This document shows, piece by piece, positions 8,814 through 44,719 of a DNA stretch of 64,000 nt; the stretch's first letter is position 1; the number at the start of each line of letters is the position of its first letter. The notes under the pieces are model-generated. The model was not told the DNA's origin. It did no database searches and saw nothing but the letters and a program-made list of their open reading frames with translations. Where the stretch lies: the NCBI RefSeq assembly GCF_055900595.2, contig NZ_CM148325.1; one strand, 5' to 3'. Made by a program: the position numbers and the translations under genes.

Positions 8814-10580
8814 TTAGTAAGTACGAATCTTCGGCGGGAATGCCGGGCGCAGTTTCGGTTCCATGTTGACGCTTCGGCGCGTCATGGATTCCGACTCTGG
8901 CAGATACAGGGAGTGGCACAGCCAGTTTTCATCATCACGATCCGGGAAGTCGAAGCGGCTATGCGCGCCACGGCTTTCGGTACGGAAGTTGGCAGAAACA
9001 GCCGTTGCATACGCCGTTTCCATCAGGTTATCCAGTTCCAGGCATTCAACGCGCTGGGTGTTGAACTCGCTGGAAGTGTCATCCAGACGGGCATTTTTCA
9101 AACGCTCACGGATCACTTTCAACTGCTCAAGCCCTTTTGCCATCGCATCACCTTCACGGAAGACCGAGAAGTTATGCTGCATACATTCTTGCAGTGCTTT
9201 ACGAATCGCCACCGGATCTTCACCATTACGGTTGTTGTTCCAGCGATTCAGGCGATCCAGAGACGCTTCAACATCAGACTCGCTGGCATCGCGCAGTGCG
9301 CCCTGCTCGGCAATAGACTCTTGCAGATGCAGGCCCGCTGCGCGACCAAAGACCACCAGGTCCAGCAGCGAGTTACCGCCAAGACGGTTAGCGCCGTGTA
9401 CCGAAACACAAGCGATTTCACCTACCGCGAACAGCCCCGGAACAACCACATCTTCGCCTTTCTCGTTCACCGTCAGCGCCTGACCGGTCACTTTGGTCGG
9501 AATACCGCCCATCATGTAGTGACAGGTTGGGATAACCGGAATCGGCTCTTTCACCGGATCGACGTGTGCGAAGGTACGGGAGAGTTCAAGGATACCCGGC
9601 AGACGGGATTCGAGAACTTCTTTACCCAGGTGGTCGAGTTTCAGTTTTGCATGTGGCCCCCACGGACCATCACAGCCGCGACCTTCACGGATTTCGATCA
9701 TGATGGAACGCGCCACCACGTCACGGCCCGCCAGGTCTTTGGCGTTCGGCGCATAACGCTCCATAAAGCGTTCGCCATGTTTGTTCAGCAGGTAACCGCC
9801 TTCACCACGGCAACCTTCGGTGACCAGTACGCCCGCACCTGCTATACCGGTCGGGTGGAACTGCCACATTTCCATATCCTGCACAGGTACACCTGCACGG
9901 ATAGCCATACCGACGCCGTCGCCGGTGTTAATGTGCGCGTTGGTGGTGGACTGATAAATACGCCCTGCCCCGCCGGTTGCCAGCACAGTCGCACGGGCTT
10001 TGAAGTAAACCACTTCACCGGTTTCGATGCACAGTGCGGTACAACCAACTACCGCGCCATCCTGGTTCTTCACCAGATCCAGCGCATACCACTCGGAGAA
10101 AATGGTGGTGTGGTTTTTCAGGTTCTGCTGATAAAGCGTGTGCAACAGTGCGTGACCGGTACGGTCAGCTGCCGCCGCAGTACGTGCCGCTTGCTCGCCA
10201 CCGAAGTTTTTCGACTGGCCGCCAAACGGACGTTGATAGATACGACCATCATCAAGACGCGAGAACGGTAGCCCCATGTGTTCCAGTTCCAGAATCGCTT
10301 CCGGCCCGGTTTTACACATATATTCAATCGCGTCCTGGTCACCGATATAGTCCGACCCTTTTACGGTGTCGTACATATGCCATTCCCAGTTATCTTCATG
10401 GGTATTACCCAGCGCAACGGTAATGCCGCCTTGCGCAGAAACGGTATGGGAACGGGTCGGGAAGACTTTGGAGAGCAGCGCACAGGTTTGGCCGCTCTGG
10501 GAAATTTGCAGCGCCGCGCGCATACCTGCGCCACCGGCACCAATCACAACTGCATCAAATTCTCTGACTGGCAATTTCAT
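8814..10580 (-). CDS. sdhA: succinate dehydrogenase flavoprotein subunit
   Basis: Start placed at [19 protein letters not shown] (FAD-binding GxGxxG), four codons inside the longest ORF; 588 aa. Confidence 0.96.
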
Positions 10581-37409: not shown

Positions 37410-38083
37410 CAAACGTTCTGATTGTTGAAGATGAACAGGCTATTCGTCGCTTTCTGCGCACGGCGCTGGAGGGTGACGGTATGCGCGTTTTTGAAGCCGA
37501 AACGCTGCAACGGGGGCTGCTGGAAGCGGCAACTCGTAAGCCAGATTTGATTATTCTCGATCTCGGCCTGCCAGACGGTGATGGGATTGAGTTTATCCGC
37601 GACCTGCGCCAGTGGAGCGCGGTGCCGGTGATTGTGCTTTCCGCACGTAGCGAAGAGAGCGACAAAATCGCCGCGCTGGATGCTGGAGCGGATGATTACC
37701 TGAGTAAGCCGTTTGGCATTGGTGAATTGCAGGCCCGTCTGCGCGTTGCTTTACGCCGCCACTCTGCTACCACCGCGCCCGATCCGCGGGTGAAATTTTC
37801 TGATGTTACCGTCGATTTAGCCGCCCGCGTGATTCACCGCAGTGAGGAAGAGGTGCATCTCACCCCGATTGAATTCCGCCTGCTGGCGGTGCTGCTCAAC
37901 AATGCCGGAAAAGTGCTCACCCAGCGCCAGTTACTCATTCAGGTGTGGGGACCAAACGCGGTCGAACACAGCCATTATTTGCGTATTTATATGGGGCATC
38001 TGCGACAAAAACTGGAGCAAGATCCCGCCCGCCCTCGCCATTTTATTACTGAAACCGGTATTGGGTATCGGTTTATGCCATGA
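37406..38083 (+). CDS. kdpE: response regulator KdpE (OmpR family)
   Basis: 225 aa, receiver domain with IILDLGLPDGDG and winged-helix C-terminus; GTG start overlaps the kdpD stop. Confidence 0.95.
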   Translation: MTNVLIVEDEQAIRRFLRTALEGDGMRVFEAETLQRGLLEAATRKPDLIILDLGLPDGDGIEFIRDLRQWSAVPVIVLSARSEESDKIAALDAGADDYLSKPFGIGELQARLRVALRRHSATTAPDPRVKFSDVTVDLAARVIHRSEEEVHLTPIEFRLLAVLLNNAGKVLTQRQLLIQVWGPNAVEHSHYLRIYMGHLRQKLEQDPARPRHFITETGIGYRFMP

Positions 38084-38772: not shown

Positions 38773-40971
38773 ATGTCAGAATTAAAAATTGCCGTTAGTC
38801 GTTCTTGCCCGGATTGTTTTTCCACTCATCGTGCATGCGTGAATATTGACGAAAGTAATTATATTGACGTTGCCGCCATTATTTTATCAGTCAATGATGT
38901 TGAACGTGGAAAACTCGATGAAATAGACGCTACTGGCTATGGCATTCCTGTTTTTATTGCAACGGAAAATGAAGAACGTGTACCAGCAGAATATCTGCCA
39001 CGTATTACTGGTGTCTTCGAGCATTGTGAATCACGGAAAGAATTTTACGGACGTCAGTTAGAAACCGCTGCCAGCCATTATGAAACGCAGTTGCGCCCGC
39101 CCTTCTTCCGCGCACTGGTCGATTATGTCAATCAGGGCAATAGCGCTTTTGACTGCCCGGGTCATCAGGGGGGTGAGTTTTTCCGTCGCCATCCGGCAGG
39201 CAATCAGTTCGTGGAATATTTTGGTGAAATGCTCTTCCGCTCCGACTTGTGTAATGCCGACGTAGCAATGGGCGATCTACTGATTCATGAAGGTGCGCCA
39301 TGCATTGCACAGCAACATGCGGCTAAAGTGTTTAATGCCGATAAAACGTACTTTGTTTTAAACGGCACCTCCTCTTCCAACAAAGTGGTTTTAAACGCCC
39401 TGCTAACACCGGGTGATCTGGTGCTGTTTGACCGCAATAACCATAAGTCTAACCACCACGGGGCCTTGCTACAGGCTGGTGCAACACCGGTTTATCTGGA
39501 AACAGCACGTAACCCGTATGGTTTTATCGGTGGTATTGATGCGCACTGCTTCGAAGAAAGTTATCTGCGTGAACTGATTAGAGAAGTTGCACCGCAACGG
39601 GCAAAAGAGGCGCGTCCGTTCCGCCTCGCTGTGATTCAGTTAGGCACCTACGACGGTACTATTTATAACGCCCGCCAGGTGGTGGATAAAATCGGTCATC
39701 TGTGTGACTACATCCTGTTTGACTCAGCATGGGTCGGCTATGAACAGTTTATTCCGATGATGGCGGACTGTTCGCCGCTGCTACTGGAGCTTAATGAGAA
39801 CGATCCGGGTATTCTGGTTACGCAATCTGTACATAAGCAGCAGGCTGGTTTTTCTCAGACTTCACAAATTCATAAAAAAGACAGCCATATCAAAGGGCAA
39901 CAGCGTTATGTCCCGCACAAACGCATGAACAACGCCTTTATGATGCACGCCTCCACCAGCCCGTTCTATCCGCTGTTTGCCGCACTGGATATTAACGCCA
40001 AAATGCATGAAGGTGTCAGCGGTCGTAATATGTGGATGGATTGTGTGGTTAACGGTATTAATGCCCGCAAATTGATCCTCGATAACTGTCAGCACATTCG
40101 TCCGTTCGTTCCTGAACTGGTGGATGGTAAACCCTGGCAATCGTATGAAACAGCGCAAATTGCGGTTGATCTGCGCTTCTTTAAATTTGTACCCGGTGAG
40201 CACTGGCATTCTTTTGAAGGTTACGCAGAGAACCAATACTTTGTCGATCCGTGCAAACTGTTGCTGACAACTCCTGGCATTGATGCACGTAACGGCGAAT
40301 ATGAAGCATTCGGTGTACCCGCGACGATTCTTGCTAACTTCCTGCGCGAAAATGGCGTAGTGCCGGAAAAATGCGATCTTAACTCCATCCTCTTCCTGCT
40401 GACTCCGGCAGAAGATATGGCCAAACTGCAGCAACTTGTTGCCCTGCTGGTACGCTTCGAAAAACTACTGGAAGCTGATGCGCCTCTGGCGGAAGTATTG
40501 CCTTCCATCTACAAACAGCATGAAGAGCGCTACGCCGGTTATACCCTGCGTCAGTTGTGCCAGGAAATGCATGATTTGTATGCCCGTCACAACGTGAAAC
40601 AACTGCAAAAAGAGATGTTCCGTAAGGAACACTTCCCACGCGTCAGCATGAATCCACAGGAAGCCAACTATGCCTACTTACGCGGTGAAGTGGAATTGGT
40701 TCGTCTGCCGGATGCAGAAGGCCGTATCGCAGCCGAAGGTGCGCTTCCTTATCCTCCGGGTGTGCTGTGTGTTGTTCCGGGTGAAATCTGGGGTGGTGCT
40801 GTTCTGCATTACTTCAGCGCTCTGGAAGAAGGGATCAACCTGCTGCCAGGTTTTGCACCGGAGCTGCAGGGTGTCTATATCGAAGAACATGATGGTCGTA
40901 AGCAAGTTTGGTGCTATGTCATCAAGCCTCGTGATGCGCAAAGCACCCTGTTGAAAGGGGAAAAATTATGA
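38773..40971 (+). CDS. speF: inducible ornithine decarboxylase
   Basis: 732 aa from MSELKIAVS; Orn/Lys/Arg decarboxylase major domain. Confidence 0.96.
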   Translation: MSELKIAVSRSCPDCFSTHRACVNIDESNYIDVAAIILSVNDVERGKLDEIDATGYGIPVFIATENEERVPAEYLPRITGVFEHCESRKEFYGRQLETAASHYETQLRPPFFRALVDYVNQGNSAFDCPGHQGGEFFRRHPAGNQFVEYFGEMLFRSDLCNADVAMGDLLIHEGAPCIAQQHAAKVFNADKTYFVLNGTSSSNKVVLNALLTPGDLVLFDRNNHKSNHHGALLQAGATPVYLETARNPYGFIGGIDAHCFEESYLRELIREVAPQRAKEARPFRLAVIQLGTYDGTIYNARQVVDKIGHLCDYILFDSAWVGYEQFIPMMADCSPLLLELNENDPGILVTQSVHKQQAGFSQTSQIHKKDSHIKGQQRYVPHKRMNNAFMMHASTSPFYPLFAALDINAKMHEGVSGRNMWMDCVVNGINARKLILDNCQHIRPFVPELVDGKPWQSYETAQIAVDLRFFKFVPGEHWHSFEGYAENQYFVDPCKLLLTTPGIDARNGEYEAFGVPATILANFLRENGVVPEKCDLNSILFLLTPAEDMAKLQQLVALLVRFEKLLEADAPLAEVLPSIYKQHEERYAGYTLRQLCQEMHDLYARHNVKQLQKEMFRKEHFPRVSMNPQEANYAYLRGEVELVRLPDAEGRIAAEGALPYPPGVLCVVPGEIWGGAVLHYFSALEEGINLLPGFAPELQGVYIEEHDGRKQVWCYVIKPRDAQSTLLKGEKL

Positions 40972-42287
40972 GTCAGGCTAAATCGAACAAAATGGGCGTC
41001 GTTCAGTTAACCATACTGACGATGGTCAACATGATGGGCTCCGGCATCATCATGCTGCCGACAAAGCTTGCCGAAGTTGGGACAATCTCAATAATCTCCT
41101 GGTTGGTGACAGCCGTAGGCTCAATGGCGCTGGCATGGGCATTCGCAAAATGCGGTATGTTCAGCCGTAAATCAGGCGGTATGGGCGGTTATGCCGAGTA
41201 TGCTTTCGGTAAATCCGGTAACTTTATGGCGAACTATACCTACGGCGTCTCGCTGCTGATTGCTAACGTGGCGATTGCTATTTCGGCAGTTGGTTACGGC
41301 ACCGAACTGCTCGGCGCGAGTTTGTCACCAGTGCAGATTGGTCTGGCAACCATCGGAGTGCTGTGGATTTGTACCGTGGCTAACTTTGGTGGTGCGCGCA
41401 TTACCGGGCAAATCAGTAGCATTACCGTGTGGGGGGTCATTATTCCGGTGGTAGGCCTGTGCGTTATCGGCTGGTTCTGGTTTAGCCCGACACTTTACGT
41501 TGATTCCTGGAATCCGCATCATGCACCGTTCTTCAGTGCGGTAGGTTCTTCCATCGCCATGACGCTGTGGGCTTTTCTTGGTCTGGAGTCTGCGTGTGCG
41601 AATACTGATGTAGTGGAAAACCCGGAACGTAATGTGCCAATCGCGGTACTCGGCGGTACGTTAGGTGCGGCGGTGATTTATATCGTCTCCACCAACGTGA
41701 TTGCCGGGATTGTGCCCAATATGGAGCTGGCAAATTCAACGGCACCATTTGGTCTGGCCTTCGCGCAAATGTTCACACCGGAAGTGGGTAAAGTCATTAT
41801 GGCGCTGATGGTGATGTCCTGCTGCGGTTCACTGCTTGGCTGGCAGTTCACCATTGCCCAGGTGTTTAAATCTTCATCTGATGAAGGCTACTTCCCTAAA
41901 ATTTTCTCCCGTGTAACCAAAGTGGATGCACCGGTTCAGGGGATGTTGACCATTGTGATTATTCAGAGTGGATTGGCACTGATGACCATTAGCCCGTCAC
42001 TGAACAGCCAGTTCAACGTGCTGGTTAACCTGGCCGTGGTGACCAATATCATCCCATATATTCTGTCGATGGCGGCATTAGTCATTATTCAGAAGGTCGC
42101 CAATGTGCCACCATCAAAAGCGAAAGTAGCAAACTTTGTTGCCTTTGTTGGTGCGATGTACAGTTTCTATGCGCTGTACTCATCCGGGGAAGAAGCCATG
42201 CTGTACGGTTCCATCGTGACTTTCCTTGGTTGGACACTGTATGGTCTGGTATCACCACGCTTTGAACTGAAAAACAAACACGGTTAA
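40968..42287 (+). CDS. potE: putrescine:ornithine antiporter (APC family)
   Basis: 439 aa, 12 TM; overlaps the speF stop. Confidence 0.96.
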   Translation: MSQAKSNKMGVVQLTILTMVNMMGSGIIMLPTKLAEVGTISIISWLVTAVGSMALAWAFAKCGMFSRKSGGMGGYAEYAFGKSGNFMANYTYGVSLLIANVAIAISAVGYGTELLGASLSPVQIGLATIGVLWICTVANFGGARITGQISSITVWGVIIPVVGLCVIGWFWFSPTLYVDSWNPHHAPFFSAVGSSIAMTLWAFLGLESACANTDVVENPERNVPIAVLGGTLGAAVIYIVSTNVIAGIVPNMELANSTAPFGLAFAQMFTPEVGKVIMALMVMSCCGSLLGWQFTIAQVFKSSSDEGYFPKIFSRVTKVDAPVQGMLTIVIIQSGLALMTISPSLNSQFNVLVNLAVVTNIIPYILSMAALVIIQKVANVPPSKAKVANFVAFVGAMYSFYALYSSGEEAMLYGSIVTFLGWTLYGLVSPRFELKNKHG

Positions 42288-42306
42288 AAAAAGCGAAATA
42301 AATATC

Positions 42307-42330
42307 CTCCGGCATAGCCGGAGGTTTTTC
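42307..42330 (+). terminator. potE intrinsic terminator
   Basis: Hairpin CCTCCGGC-ATA-GCCGGAGG followed by TTTTT. Confidence 0.85.
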
Positions 42331-42332
42331 AA

Positions 42333-43040
42333 ATGCGCCTGTAAGGCTCTGTTACCAGCCGCGCCCTAACAGGCGCATACGATCTGACATTTGCATTCAA
42401 CTTCGTTACTTACGGCCCGTAAACGGGCTGCCCGGATATGGAATCGATAACTGCTCCCCCATTTTATCCTCTTCAAGCTGGTGCTTTATGTAGTCCTGTA
42501 TCTTCGCCGTGTTCTTACCCACCGTATCGACATAGTACCCTCGGCACCAGAACTCCCTGTTTCTGTATTTGAATTTCAAATCCCCAAACTGCTCGTAAAG
42601 CATCAGACTGCTTTTCCCTTTCAGATATCCCATAAAGCCGGATACGCTCATTTTGGGTGGGATTTCCACAAGCATATGGATATGATCTGCGCAGCACTCT
42701 GCTTCCAGAATCCGTACGCTTTTCCACTCACACAGCTTTCTCAAAATACTGCCTATCGCCCTACGCTTCTCTCCGTAAAACGCCAGTCTTCGGTATTTCG
42801 GCGCAAAAACTATGTGATATTTACAGTTCCAGCGGGTGTGCGCTAAGCTCTTTTCGTCCCCCATTGGGACCCCCTTTTGATTTCTTGTTTGACACTTGCA
42901 GTTGCCAGACCGCAAGGTGTTTTAACAAATCAAAAGGGGTTTTAATAACTGGCTCAAAGCTGAAAGCTTTCCGGAACCCCCAGCCTAGCTGGGGGTTTTC
43001 TGTGCACAAAAAAAGGGCGATTGAATGATCGCCCTTTCTG
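42333..43040 (-). mobile_element. IS200-like insertion sequence (IS200/IS605 family); boundaries approximate
   Basis: Contains a 152-aa Y1 HUH transposase gene; structured ends without long terminal inverted repeats (GC hairpin AGGGCGAT...ATCGCCCT with a U-run near one end, perfect 10-bp inverted repeat ATGCGCCTGT/ACAGGCGCAT near the other); inferred length about 708 bp. Confidence 0.65.
42406..42864 (-). CDS. tnpA: IS200-type transposase TnpA (Y1 HUH)
   Basis: 152 aa from MGDEKSLAHTRWNCKYHIVFAPKYRR...ADHIHMLVEIPPKMSVS; HUH motif HIHMLV and a conserved Tyr region. Confidence 0.88.
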   Translation of the reverse strand: MGDEKSLAHTRWNCKYHIVFAPKYRRLAFYGEKRRAIGSILRKLCEWKSVRILEAECCADHIHMLVEIPPKMSVSGFMGYLKGKSSLMLYEQFGDLKFKYRNREFWCRGYYVDTVGKNTAKIQDYIKHQLEEDKMGEQLSIPYPGSPFTGRK

Positions 43041-43078: not shown

Positions 43079-43221
43079 CAGGTGTAGGATCCAAACGCGG
43101 TCGAACACAGCAACTATTTGCGTAATTATATGAGGCATTTGCGACAAAAACTGGAACAGGATCACGTCCGCCCCGCCATTTCATTACTGAAACCGGTATT
43201 GGGTATCGGTTTATGCTTTGA
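43079..43221 (+). pseudogene. degenerate duplicate of the kdpE 3' end
   Basis: About 140 bp at roughly 85-90% identity to kdpE 37950-38083, with several substitutions and a 1-nt indel that breaks the frame. Confidence 0.7.
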
Positions 43222-43344
43222 AAAAAGTGGCAATGTATGGATAAAGTCATTTTTTATTCAAATATAAGGAACTTAATATTTAAAAAATGTCCCATACAAT
43301 GCCTCATCATAAATGACACCGTAGCACACAAGGAGCAAGTAGCG

Positions 43345-43995
43345 ATGCGTGAAGTGAGTCAGTTAGTAAATACTGAAGATTCAGCCTGGACAATAATCCA
43401 GAATTGGTTAAAAGAAGCCACAAACCATGCCGAACTCTTACCGGTTAATAAAGATTTAGCCGAAACCGCACTTTATCAATTACAGGTTACAACAAAATCA
43501 CCGATGGGTGCGCTTGTCTATGGCTCCGGAGGTCTGCTGATTGATAACGGTTGGTTACGCATATCAGGCTCTGGTCACCCCCGGTTACCACGAGATCCAG
43601 CAAGTTGGACACAACGCCCTGAATTCGCAAGCGTGCGGGCTTTACCCATCGCCGATGATGTCGCAGGGGGAATTTTTGCTCTTAATGGTGGCGATCTTGG
43701 GGAAGATACTGGCTGCGTTTATTATTTTGCGCCAGATACGCTGAATTGGGAAAGTCTGGAGGTTGGATATTCTGAGTTTCTTCAGTGGGCATTATCCGGT
43801 GATTTAGATACCTTCTATGAAAATGTACGCTGGCCGCAATGGCAAGAAGACGTAATAAAATTATCGGCAACGGAAGCCTTCACTTTCTACCCTTTCTTAT
43901 GGGTACAAAGTGAAGAAGCAAGAACAAGAAAAGTTATTTCGCTTACTGAACTCTGGGAAATGCAGTATCAAATGAAAGAAACAATCACGCAATAA
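43345..43995 (+). CDS. conserved hypothetical protein (positionally the ybfG locus)
   Basis: 216 aa from MREVSQLVNTEDSAWTIIQNWLKEATNH, with a strong AAGGAG SD 9 nt upstream; the longer ORF from 43237 lacks an RBS; family not verified. Confidence 0.6.
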   Translation: MREVSQLVNTEDSAWTIIQNWLKEATNHAELLPVNKDLAETALYQLQVTTKSPMGALVYGSGGLLIDNGWLRISGSGHPRLPRDPASWTQRPEFASVRALPIADDVAGGIFALNGGDLGEDTGCVYYFAPDTLNWESLEVGYSEFLQWALSGDLDTFYENVRWPQWQEDVIKLSATEAFTFYPFLWVQSEEARTRKVISLTELWEMQYQMKETITQ

Positions 43996-44581: not shown

Positions 44582-44679
44582 GCCGGATGCGGCGTGAACG
44601 CCTTATCCGTCCTACAAAATAGTGCAAATTCAATATATTGCACCATCCTCGTAGGCCTGATGAACGTAGCGTATCAGGC
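44582..44679. repeat. REP/BIME pair
   Basis: GCCGGATGCGGCGTGAACGCCTTATCCGTCCTAC and GTAGGCCTGATGAACGTAGCGTATCAGGC. Confidence 0.75.
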
Positions 44680-44689
44680 TATCATAAGT

Positions 44690-44719
44690 AAAAAGGGCGA
44701 TCTTCCGACCGCCCTTTTT
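44690..44719. terminator. bidirectional intrinsic terminator downstream of pgm
   Basis: Hairpin GGGCG-ATCTTCCGAC-CGCCC flanked by an A-run and a T-run. Confidence 0.7.

Follow-up and report, generated by a model that had tools for sequence, protein, structure and literature searches.

An intact IS200 copy lies between potE and its native terminator in an Escherichia coli genome

Judged from its sequence, the segment 42297/42300-43008 of the window (the whole stretch of 64,000 nucleotides that was analysed, from contig NZ_CM148325.1) is one intact IS200 copy, whose only product is a Y1 HUH transposase encoded on the minus strand. This copy begins 12 nt past the stop codon of potE and has the native terminator of that gene on its other side. 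Among the autonomous insertion sequences of the IS200/IS605 family, IS200 is the smallest. The element itself is already known and finding it is routine; the only point of wider interest is its regular placement behind terminator hairpins, which should make insertions mostly neutral. We consider the whole account, that is the IS200 identity, the boundaries, the insertion into an A-run and the targeting of hairpins with T-runs, very probably correct.

The transposase gene tnpA is located at 42406-42864 on the minus strand and encodes a protein of 152 aa, annotated as WP_000502112.1 at the identical locus of other genomes. The product matches the Pfam profile Y1_Tnp ('Transposase IS200 like') over its whole length (E 7.9e-37, 126.5 bits with a cut-off of 23), and motif inspection revealed the HUH motif as H61-I-H63 as well as Tyr125, the residue that was mutated to obtain a catalytically dead IS200 TnpA (PMC4513863). 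Relatives in the PDB are the archaeal IS200-type protein 2ec2, IS608 TnpA (E 3e-19) and ISDra2 TnpA (E 5e-16). The mechanical ORF call begins at an upstream TTG, and the further ORFs listed inside the element, which is about 0.7 kb long, all overlap tnpA, leaving tnpA as the sole gene, without tnpB. The window contains a single IS200 copy, and the same locus in identical RefSeq genomes has already been annotated as IS200/IS605 family. An earlier note on this DNA had recognised a 152-aa Y1 HUH transposase of the IS200/IS605 family, which is borne out by the ORF, the Pfam profile and the HUH and Tyr125 residues; it had also considered a truncated gene, and tnpA was found to be intact. From the homology we infer that TnpA would catalyse single-stranded 'peel and paste' transposition. 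Two other E. coli copies, located between gyrB and yidB in SC418 and near hypT in cM8a, have a frameshifted tnpA, caused in the former by a 1-nt insertion within a T-run (TTTGAATTTTCAAATC), showing that some copies are not intact.

The boundaries of the element (42297-43008; in tnpA orientation the left end is the high coordinate) were determined by a comparison of copies, by empty sites and by a repeat search. Homology between copies runs from AATAAATATCC (42297) to CTGTGCAC(A) (43007/8 or 43009) and covers 711-712 bp when it ends at 43007/8. Beyond 42297 and 43007/8 the copies are unrelated in sequence, as seen in an alignment with copies from six further E. coli loci that was afterwards extended by another eight, giving a flank table of 15 copies from E. 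coli loci. The closest empty sites were found in RMDEC465, EC42405 and IAI39, with a flank identity of 98-98.8%. They read GGTTAAAAAAAGCGAAAT-AAAAAA-GGGCGATTGAATGATCGCCC, and the occupied site in the window reads ...GCGAAAT-AAA-TATCC...GTGCAC-AAAAAAA-GGGCG. Compared with these empty sites the net insert is 709 bp (42300-43008, slidable by 0-3 A). The comparison of the occupied with the empty site shows no target duplication, the six target A being divided between both flanks. No terminal inverted repeats were found by the end-to-end repeat search, and subterminal hairpins are present at both ends, in agreement with the hairpin-rich ends lacking inverted repeats that had been described earlier. 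The coordinates given in that description, 42333-43040, have the right length; measured against the 15 copies and the empty sites their low end is off by about 33-36 bp and their high end by 32 bp. The empty sites place the insertion point in the A-run that follows the potE stop codon and precedes the native terminator, about 33 bp away from where it had been put. For annotation, IS200 should be drawn at about 42297-43008.

The two approaches differ slightly at the right end. The trinucleotide AAT at 42297-42299 lies beside the right end of the element in all copies tabulated. At eight other loci AAT (or its A) is missing from the empty sites, which makes the inserted DNA there 710-712 bp long. 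At the window locus AAT is already present in the closest empty sites and aligns without an indel to AGT of K-12 and E2865. The right-end boundary is inconsistent by 2-3 bp, which may be due to a loss or overlap of 2-3 target bases, to slippage in the T/A-run or to an alternative cleavage at the right end. Three descriptions were rejected. A conserved AAT as target preference, considered on the tnpA strand and then on the opposite strand, does not serve as a general rule since A(TT) is missing from the K-12/E2865 empty sites, namely those at gyrB, uhpT, gnd, gadC, cof, galU and carB and the short-form potE-pgm site. An element of fixed length (711-712 bp) does not fit the window site, where it is 2-3 bp out. 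Finally, AAT in the empty relatives is not an excision footprint, since it aligns to AGT of K-12/E2865 without an indel.

Four hairpins are of importance for the region downstream of potE, which encodes the putrescine-ornithine antiporter and is intact according to the ORF list and the RefSeq annotation of the identical locus (40968-42287, plus strand, stop codon at 42285-42287). The hairpin closest to the gene is CCTCCGGC-ATA-GCCGGAGG followed by TTTTT, located at 42306-42329 on the plus strand (stem-loop 42306-42324) and spanning 19-42 nt past the potE stop. With its 8-bp GC-rich stem and T5 it scores as terminator-like on the plus strand (-19.1 kcal/mol, z -3.8). It is present in all 15 copies, the sequence CCTCCGGCATAGCCGGAGG plus TTTTT adjoining tnpA at each of the 14 loci compared with the window, and it is absent from every one of the empty potE sites (K-12, IAI39, EC42405, RMDEC465 and E2865). 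Because it is next to tnpA at these other loci and absent from the empty potE sites, the hairpin is the subterminal hairpin at the right end of IS200. A second hairpin in the right-end region, with 14-nt arms that are 93% complementary, was found by the inverted-repeat search at 42333-42378 and is conserved in other copies. The position 42333, at which the element had been proposed to start, is the first base of this internal hairpin (42333-42346/42365-42378) and not an element end.

At the left end a perfect palindrome, AACCCCCAGC-nnn-GCTGGGGGTT, is located at 42975-42997, corresponding to IS200 nt 12-34 (PMC4513863, PMC5435999). Its 10-bp arms are 100% complementary and it folds with -22.1 and -19.6 kcal/mol. 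This palindrome has been published as a bidirectional terminator that shields tnpA from outside transcription (PMC4513863, PMC5435999), with a reported efficiency of about 85%. The fourth hairpin, at 43012-43037 on the plus strand, has the stem GGGCGAT/ATCGCCC (43015-43033) with an A-run before and a T-rich sequence after it, and folds with -18.3 kcal/mol (z -4.5), again terminator-like on the plus strand. In K-12 this hairpin (GGGCGATTGAATGATCGCCC) comes 17 nt past the potE stop, and in the window the same hairpin is found on the far side of IS200. Since it follows potE directly in K-12 and lies beyond the element here, IS200 has separated potE from its terminator, which is now 709 bp further away from the stop codon. 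The right-end hairpin would be a look-alike replacement, at which termination is predicted, and speF-potE transcripts would probably stop there. The bidirectional terminator at the left end and the native potE terminator would together shield ybfI/ybfG. The earlier note had suggested that a terminator-like hairpin upstream of the transposase could insulate or modulate the downstream gene; hairpins are indeed present there, and they are two separate things, the left-end terminator at 42975-42997 and the displaced native potE terminator at 43015-43033. In an annotation, the host terminator of potE belongs at 43015-43033 and not at the hairpin that directly follows the gene.

The region upstream of tnpA resembles the regulatory RNA region known from Salmonella. 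Rfam RF01405 (STnc490) matches the left-end RNA region of IS200 at 42874-42997 on the minus strand with 146.4 bits (gathering score 56, E 2.5e-31), over model positions 1-124 of 124, which represent the 5´ UTR on the sense strand. A long stem-loop that buries the Shine-Dalgarno sequence (IS200 nt 69-138) is located at 42871-42940 on the same strand and was identified by its fold (-32.1 kcal/mol, z -4.6), as an inverted repeat, by the Rfam structure and from the published description (PMC4513863). Taking 43008 as nt 1, the left-end hairpin and the Shine-Dalgarno stem-loop map exactly to the published nt 12-34 and nt 69-138 (PMC4513863). An antisense-strand region is placed at 42856-42945 on the plus strand, with coordinates transferred from the Salmonella description (PMC4513863). 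Matches to the Rfam families Ysr202, MicX and RUF2 were far under the gathering scores and reflected only terminator-like hairpins. By homology to Salmonella IS200, tnpA would be nearly silent, owing to the left-end terminator, a weak promoter, the stem-loop sequestering the Shine-Dalgarno sequence and the antisense RNA art200.

IS200 is common in E. coli, and its presence at potE is rare. Of 5426 complete E. coli genomes, 2641 matched a 712-bp query, at 10260 places in total (814 on plasmids); the median is 2 and the maximum 35 per genome. The published mean for E. coli is 2.9 copies per genome (PMC4513863). K-12 had been noted as not known to carry IS200, and the search agrees: a chimeric query of K-12 flank and IS yields two places per K-12 record, the second of which is accounted for by the homology between kdpE and ybfI. 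The element had further been taken to mark the strain as non-K-12. Its absence from the K-12 records supports this, but with IS200 in about half of the complete E. coli genomes the element says only 'not K-12'. The potE junction, which is occupied in 11 of the 5426 genomes, points to a small lineage with about 15-17 copies. Eight of the 11 carriers have the same sequence as the window, and the query matches each of them at 15-17 places. PRO_A-1370 carries a 95.7% variant (labelled 'IS200C' by PGAP) at the same point with a K-12-like flank, and 19KM1831 and 200164 have the order potE-IS-pgm without ybfI-ybfG-ybfP (short form). Altogether there are four forms of junction and background, always in the same orientation, and the flanks next to the element differ across them (GCGAAAT, ACAAAAT, AAAGTAAT and AAAGCAAT). 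This distribution points to potE as a recurrent target rather than the site of a single event, though some forms may share ancestry.

Three other readings have to be weighed against this account. The layout put forward at first placed IS200 at 42333-43040, immediately downstream of a potE terminator at 42306-42324 and with a terminator-like hairpin at the transposase-upstream end. In its favour, its 708 bp fit IS200, 42306-42324 together with T5 resembles a terminator right after potE and a hairpin does begin at 42333. Nevertheless it is refuted and almost certainly wrong. The hairpin at 42306-42324, together with the sequence that precedes it from 42297 on, adjoins tnpA at 14 unrelated loci and occurs in no empty potE site, and the 43015-43033 hairpin, which that layout had assigned to the element, is present in the empty sites and differs at other IS copies, identifying it as the native potE terminator. 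The element thus lies before this terminator and not after it, and what had been taken for the terminator is its own right end.

It might also be that the copy is effectively immobile and that any reason for its retention lies in the regulatory RNAs it provides (the sRNA derived from 5´ tnpA and art200), its position being old history. The literature describes IS200 as nearly dormant and the tnpA 5´ RNA as trans-acting in Salmonella (PMC4513863), and all repressive elements are intact here; yet so are the ORF, the HUH motif and Tyr125. Copies of 712 bp that are 100% identical are found at other loci in other genomes (H31 and H32), the genomes sharing the insertion have 15-17 places against the species median of 2, and the exact insertion is confined to eight near-identical genomes. 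Identical copies, raised copy number and confined insertion suggest fairly recent movement, and immobility is distinctly improbable. The third reading concerns the potE insertions as a group, which could go back to one or two old events that were spread by homologous recombination and followed by gene conversion between IS variants, without any hot spot. Consistent with this, the window type and PRO_A-1370 have the same unusual junction of the 709-bp type (AAT|AAATATCC) while their IS sequences are 4.3% apart, and both short-form genomes share a junction of the 712-bp type. On the other hand, the immediate flanks differ, as do the backgrounds, some having the ybfI-ybfG-ybfP cassette and others lacking it. 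The IS variants do not follow this division of backgrounds, and a strong general preference for a hairpin with a T-run predicts repeated insertions. We regard a descent of the potE insertions from one or two events as unlikely and favour potE as a target that was hit repeatedly.

The interval downstream of the element is variable in its own right. It contains ybfI, a frameshifted fragment copied from the 3´ end of kdpE (43091-43221, plus strand, from the RefSeq annotation of the identical locus and K-12 ybfI), and a homologue of ybfG with a DUF2625 domain (43345-43995, plus strand, in an ORF of 43237-43995; Pfam E 2.2e-86 and annotation). The gene order given in the earlier note, with potE upstream and a kdpE-like fragment followed by ybfG downstream, is correct according to the annotation and Pfam. 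The ybfG ORF is intact; it is uninterrupted and annotated as a protein in identical genomes and is a pseudogene in K-12. The stretch 43079-43150 (ybfI) is 88.9% identical over 72 bp to 37940-38011, upstream of speF, where kdpE sits in K-12, which suggests an old local duplication. In 3197 of the 5426 E. coli genomes potE lies directly beside pgm, with neither cassette nor IS, and 1841 have the ybfI-ybfG-ybfP cassette. A deletion by recombination between two IS copies is thus unnecessary to explain potE-IS-pgm in 19KM1831 and 200164. The stretch from potE to ybfP had been flagged as a variable spot, and the potE-to-pgm interval is indeed variable, mainly through the presence or absence of ybfI-ybfG-ybfP, which is independent of IS200. 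The cassette is bracketed by two related terminator hairpins, at 43012-43037 (GGGCGATTGAATGATCGCCC) and 44691-44716 (GGGCGATCTTCCGACCGCCC); in genomes that lack it, a single hairpin lies between the convergent genes potE and pgm. In addition, a REP-like palindromic sequence (gccggatgcggcgtgaacgccttatccg...) is located between ybfP and the pgm terminator, at about 44590-44680. In NZ_CP010440.1 (K-12 MG1655) the ybfG-ybfI-potE stretch contains an IS1A, which independently indicates that insertions are tolerated in this interval.

The sites chosen by IS200 have a feature in common. For 14 of the 15 E. coli copies (13 of 14 sites) a strong GC hairpin (-14 to -23 kcal/mol within 35 nt) with a T-run adjoins the left end on its 5´ side, as read on the tnpA strand, and the 3´ flanks are mostly without structure. 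In the majority of sites it terminates an upstream gene of the same orientation, namely gyrB, gadC, galU, cof, pgm, fdnI, gnd, uhpT or carB. The co-orientation with upstream genes and that with replication are confounded. A cross-taxon scan with the exact 23-nt left-end hairpin of IS200 against one genome per species returned at least 120 stretches. Among the matches listed from other taxa, 110 of 116 distinct non-tandem left flanks are terminator-like; for positions drawn at random from these loci the figure is 86 of 2000. These matches come from Yersinia, Vibrio, Brenneria, Dickeya, Edwardsiella, Oxalobacter, Mailhella/Desulfovibrio and several MAGs (Bacillota, Peptococcaceae, Elusimicrobia and Saccharibacteria), and among them the first ~10 nt of the element vary by lineage. 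Some of the MAG matches are located at contig ends and could be binning contamination. Past the hairpin the left flanks are always T-rich; many end in TTATT, others in TTTTT. These endings suggest a target of about TTWTT, which would be identical to the terminus at the right end.

Elements of this family transpose as single strands, recognise their target by base pairing, insert 3´ of it and prefer the lagging-strand template, as described in the literature. Since the GC skew of the plus strand of the window is mostly negative and potE is located on the minus strand of K-12 (at 0.72 Mb), the tnpA strand would be the lagging-strand template. The element interrupts six consecutive A, which are T on the tnpA strand, between the potE stop and the stem of the native terminator. 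The terminator of potE looks bidirectional, and the transposase would have used its minus-strand T-run, which in potE direction is the A-run 5´ of the stem, as target. Unlike at most sites, the element is found upstream of the potE hairpin; we propose that this is because potE points against replication and the usable T-run is on the opposite strand. Both active strand and target we infer by analogy with IS608 and ISDra2. A more speculative extension, for which we see only a small chance of being right, is that IS200-group elements are structure-guided 'terminator seekers' across phyla whose own right end re-creates a terminator-like target. If true, this would account for tandem dimers of the related IS1541 and for the replacement of a cut-off terminator, as at potE, as well as for the harmlessness and wide spread of IS200, and potE would be a natural test case that has been hit several times. 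Odaert et al. reportedly noted in 1998 that IS1541 inserts next to terminator-like palindromes. A published statement on terminator targeting by IS200/IS1541 was not found in the literature searched, outside of which key older papers lie.

The closest known system is IS200 of Salmonella enterica (Lam & Roth 1983; Ellis et al. 2015, PMC4513863), which shares with the window copy the length of about 707-709 bp, the 152-aa TnpA with Tyr125 and the lack of inverted repeats and of a target duplication. The left-end hairpin at nt 12-34, the Shine-Dalgarno stem-loop at nt 69-138 and the full-length STnc490/art200 region are also the same at the sequence level. The window copy differs in being an E. 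coli variant with a net insert of 709 bp, or 711-712 bp by copy comparison, and was likened to the Salmonella element via the published anatomy. IS200 copies annotated by PGAP in E. coli are of the same element type, with the identical tnpA product WP_000502112.1 at other loci, but those labelled 'IS200C' are only 95-96% identical to the window copy, whose variant carries just the label 'IS200/IS605 family'.

IS1541 of Yersinia pestis has an identical left-end 23-mer hairpin and the right end GGATATTTATT, and its copies are likewise located behind a hairpin with a T-run. It differs in the first 10 nt of the left end (GTGCCCAGAA in IS1541, GTGCACAGAA here), in its very high copy number and in the occurrence of tandem dimers. 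Such head-to-tail dimers were observed at four loci of Y. pestis NCTC5923 (L094, L095, L097 and L141), where a right end ...CCGGAGGATATTTATT(T) or ...GGATATTTATT is joined directly to the left end GTGCCCAGAA; here IS1541 appears to have used its own right end as a target. IS608 of Helicobacter pylori and ISDra2 of Deinococcus have a homologous Y1 TnpA and subterminal hairpins, lack inverted repeats and target duplications, and insert 3´ of a short target, as the window copy may also have done. In contrast to the IS200 copy in the window they carry tnpB and use the targets TTAC or TTGAT, whereas the apparent target of IS200 is a T-run (about TTWTT) with a hairpin. A preference of this kind is also seen in group IIC introns, which typically lie just downstream of intrinsic-terminator motifs (PMC1702495). 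These introns rely on a ribozyme and a reverse transcriptase and thus on an unrelated mechanism, making the resemblance to IS200 an analogy in target choice.
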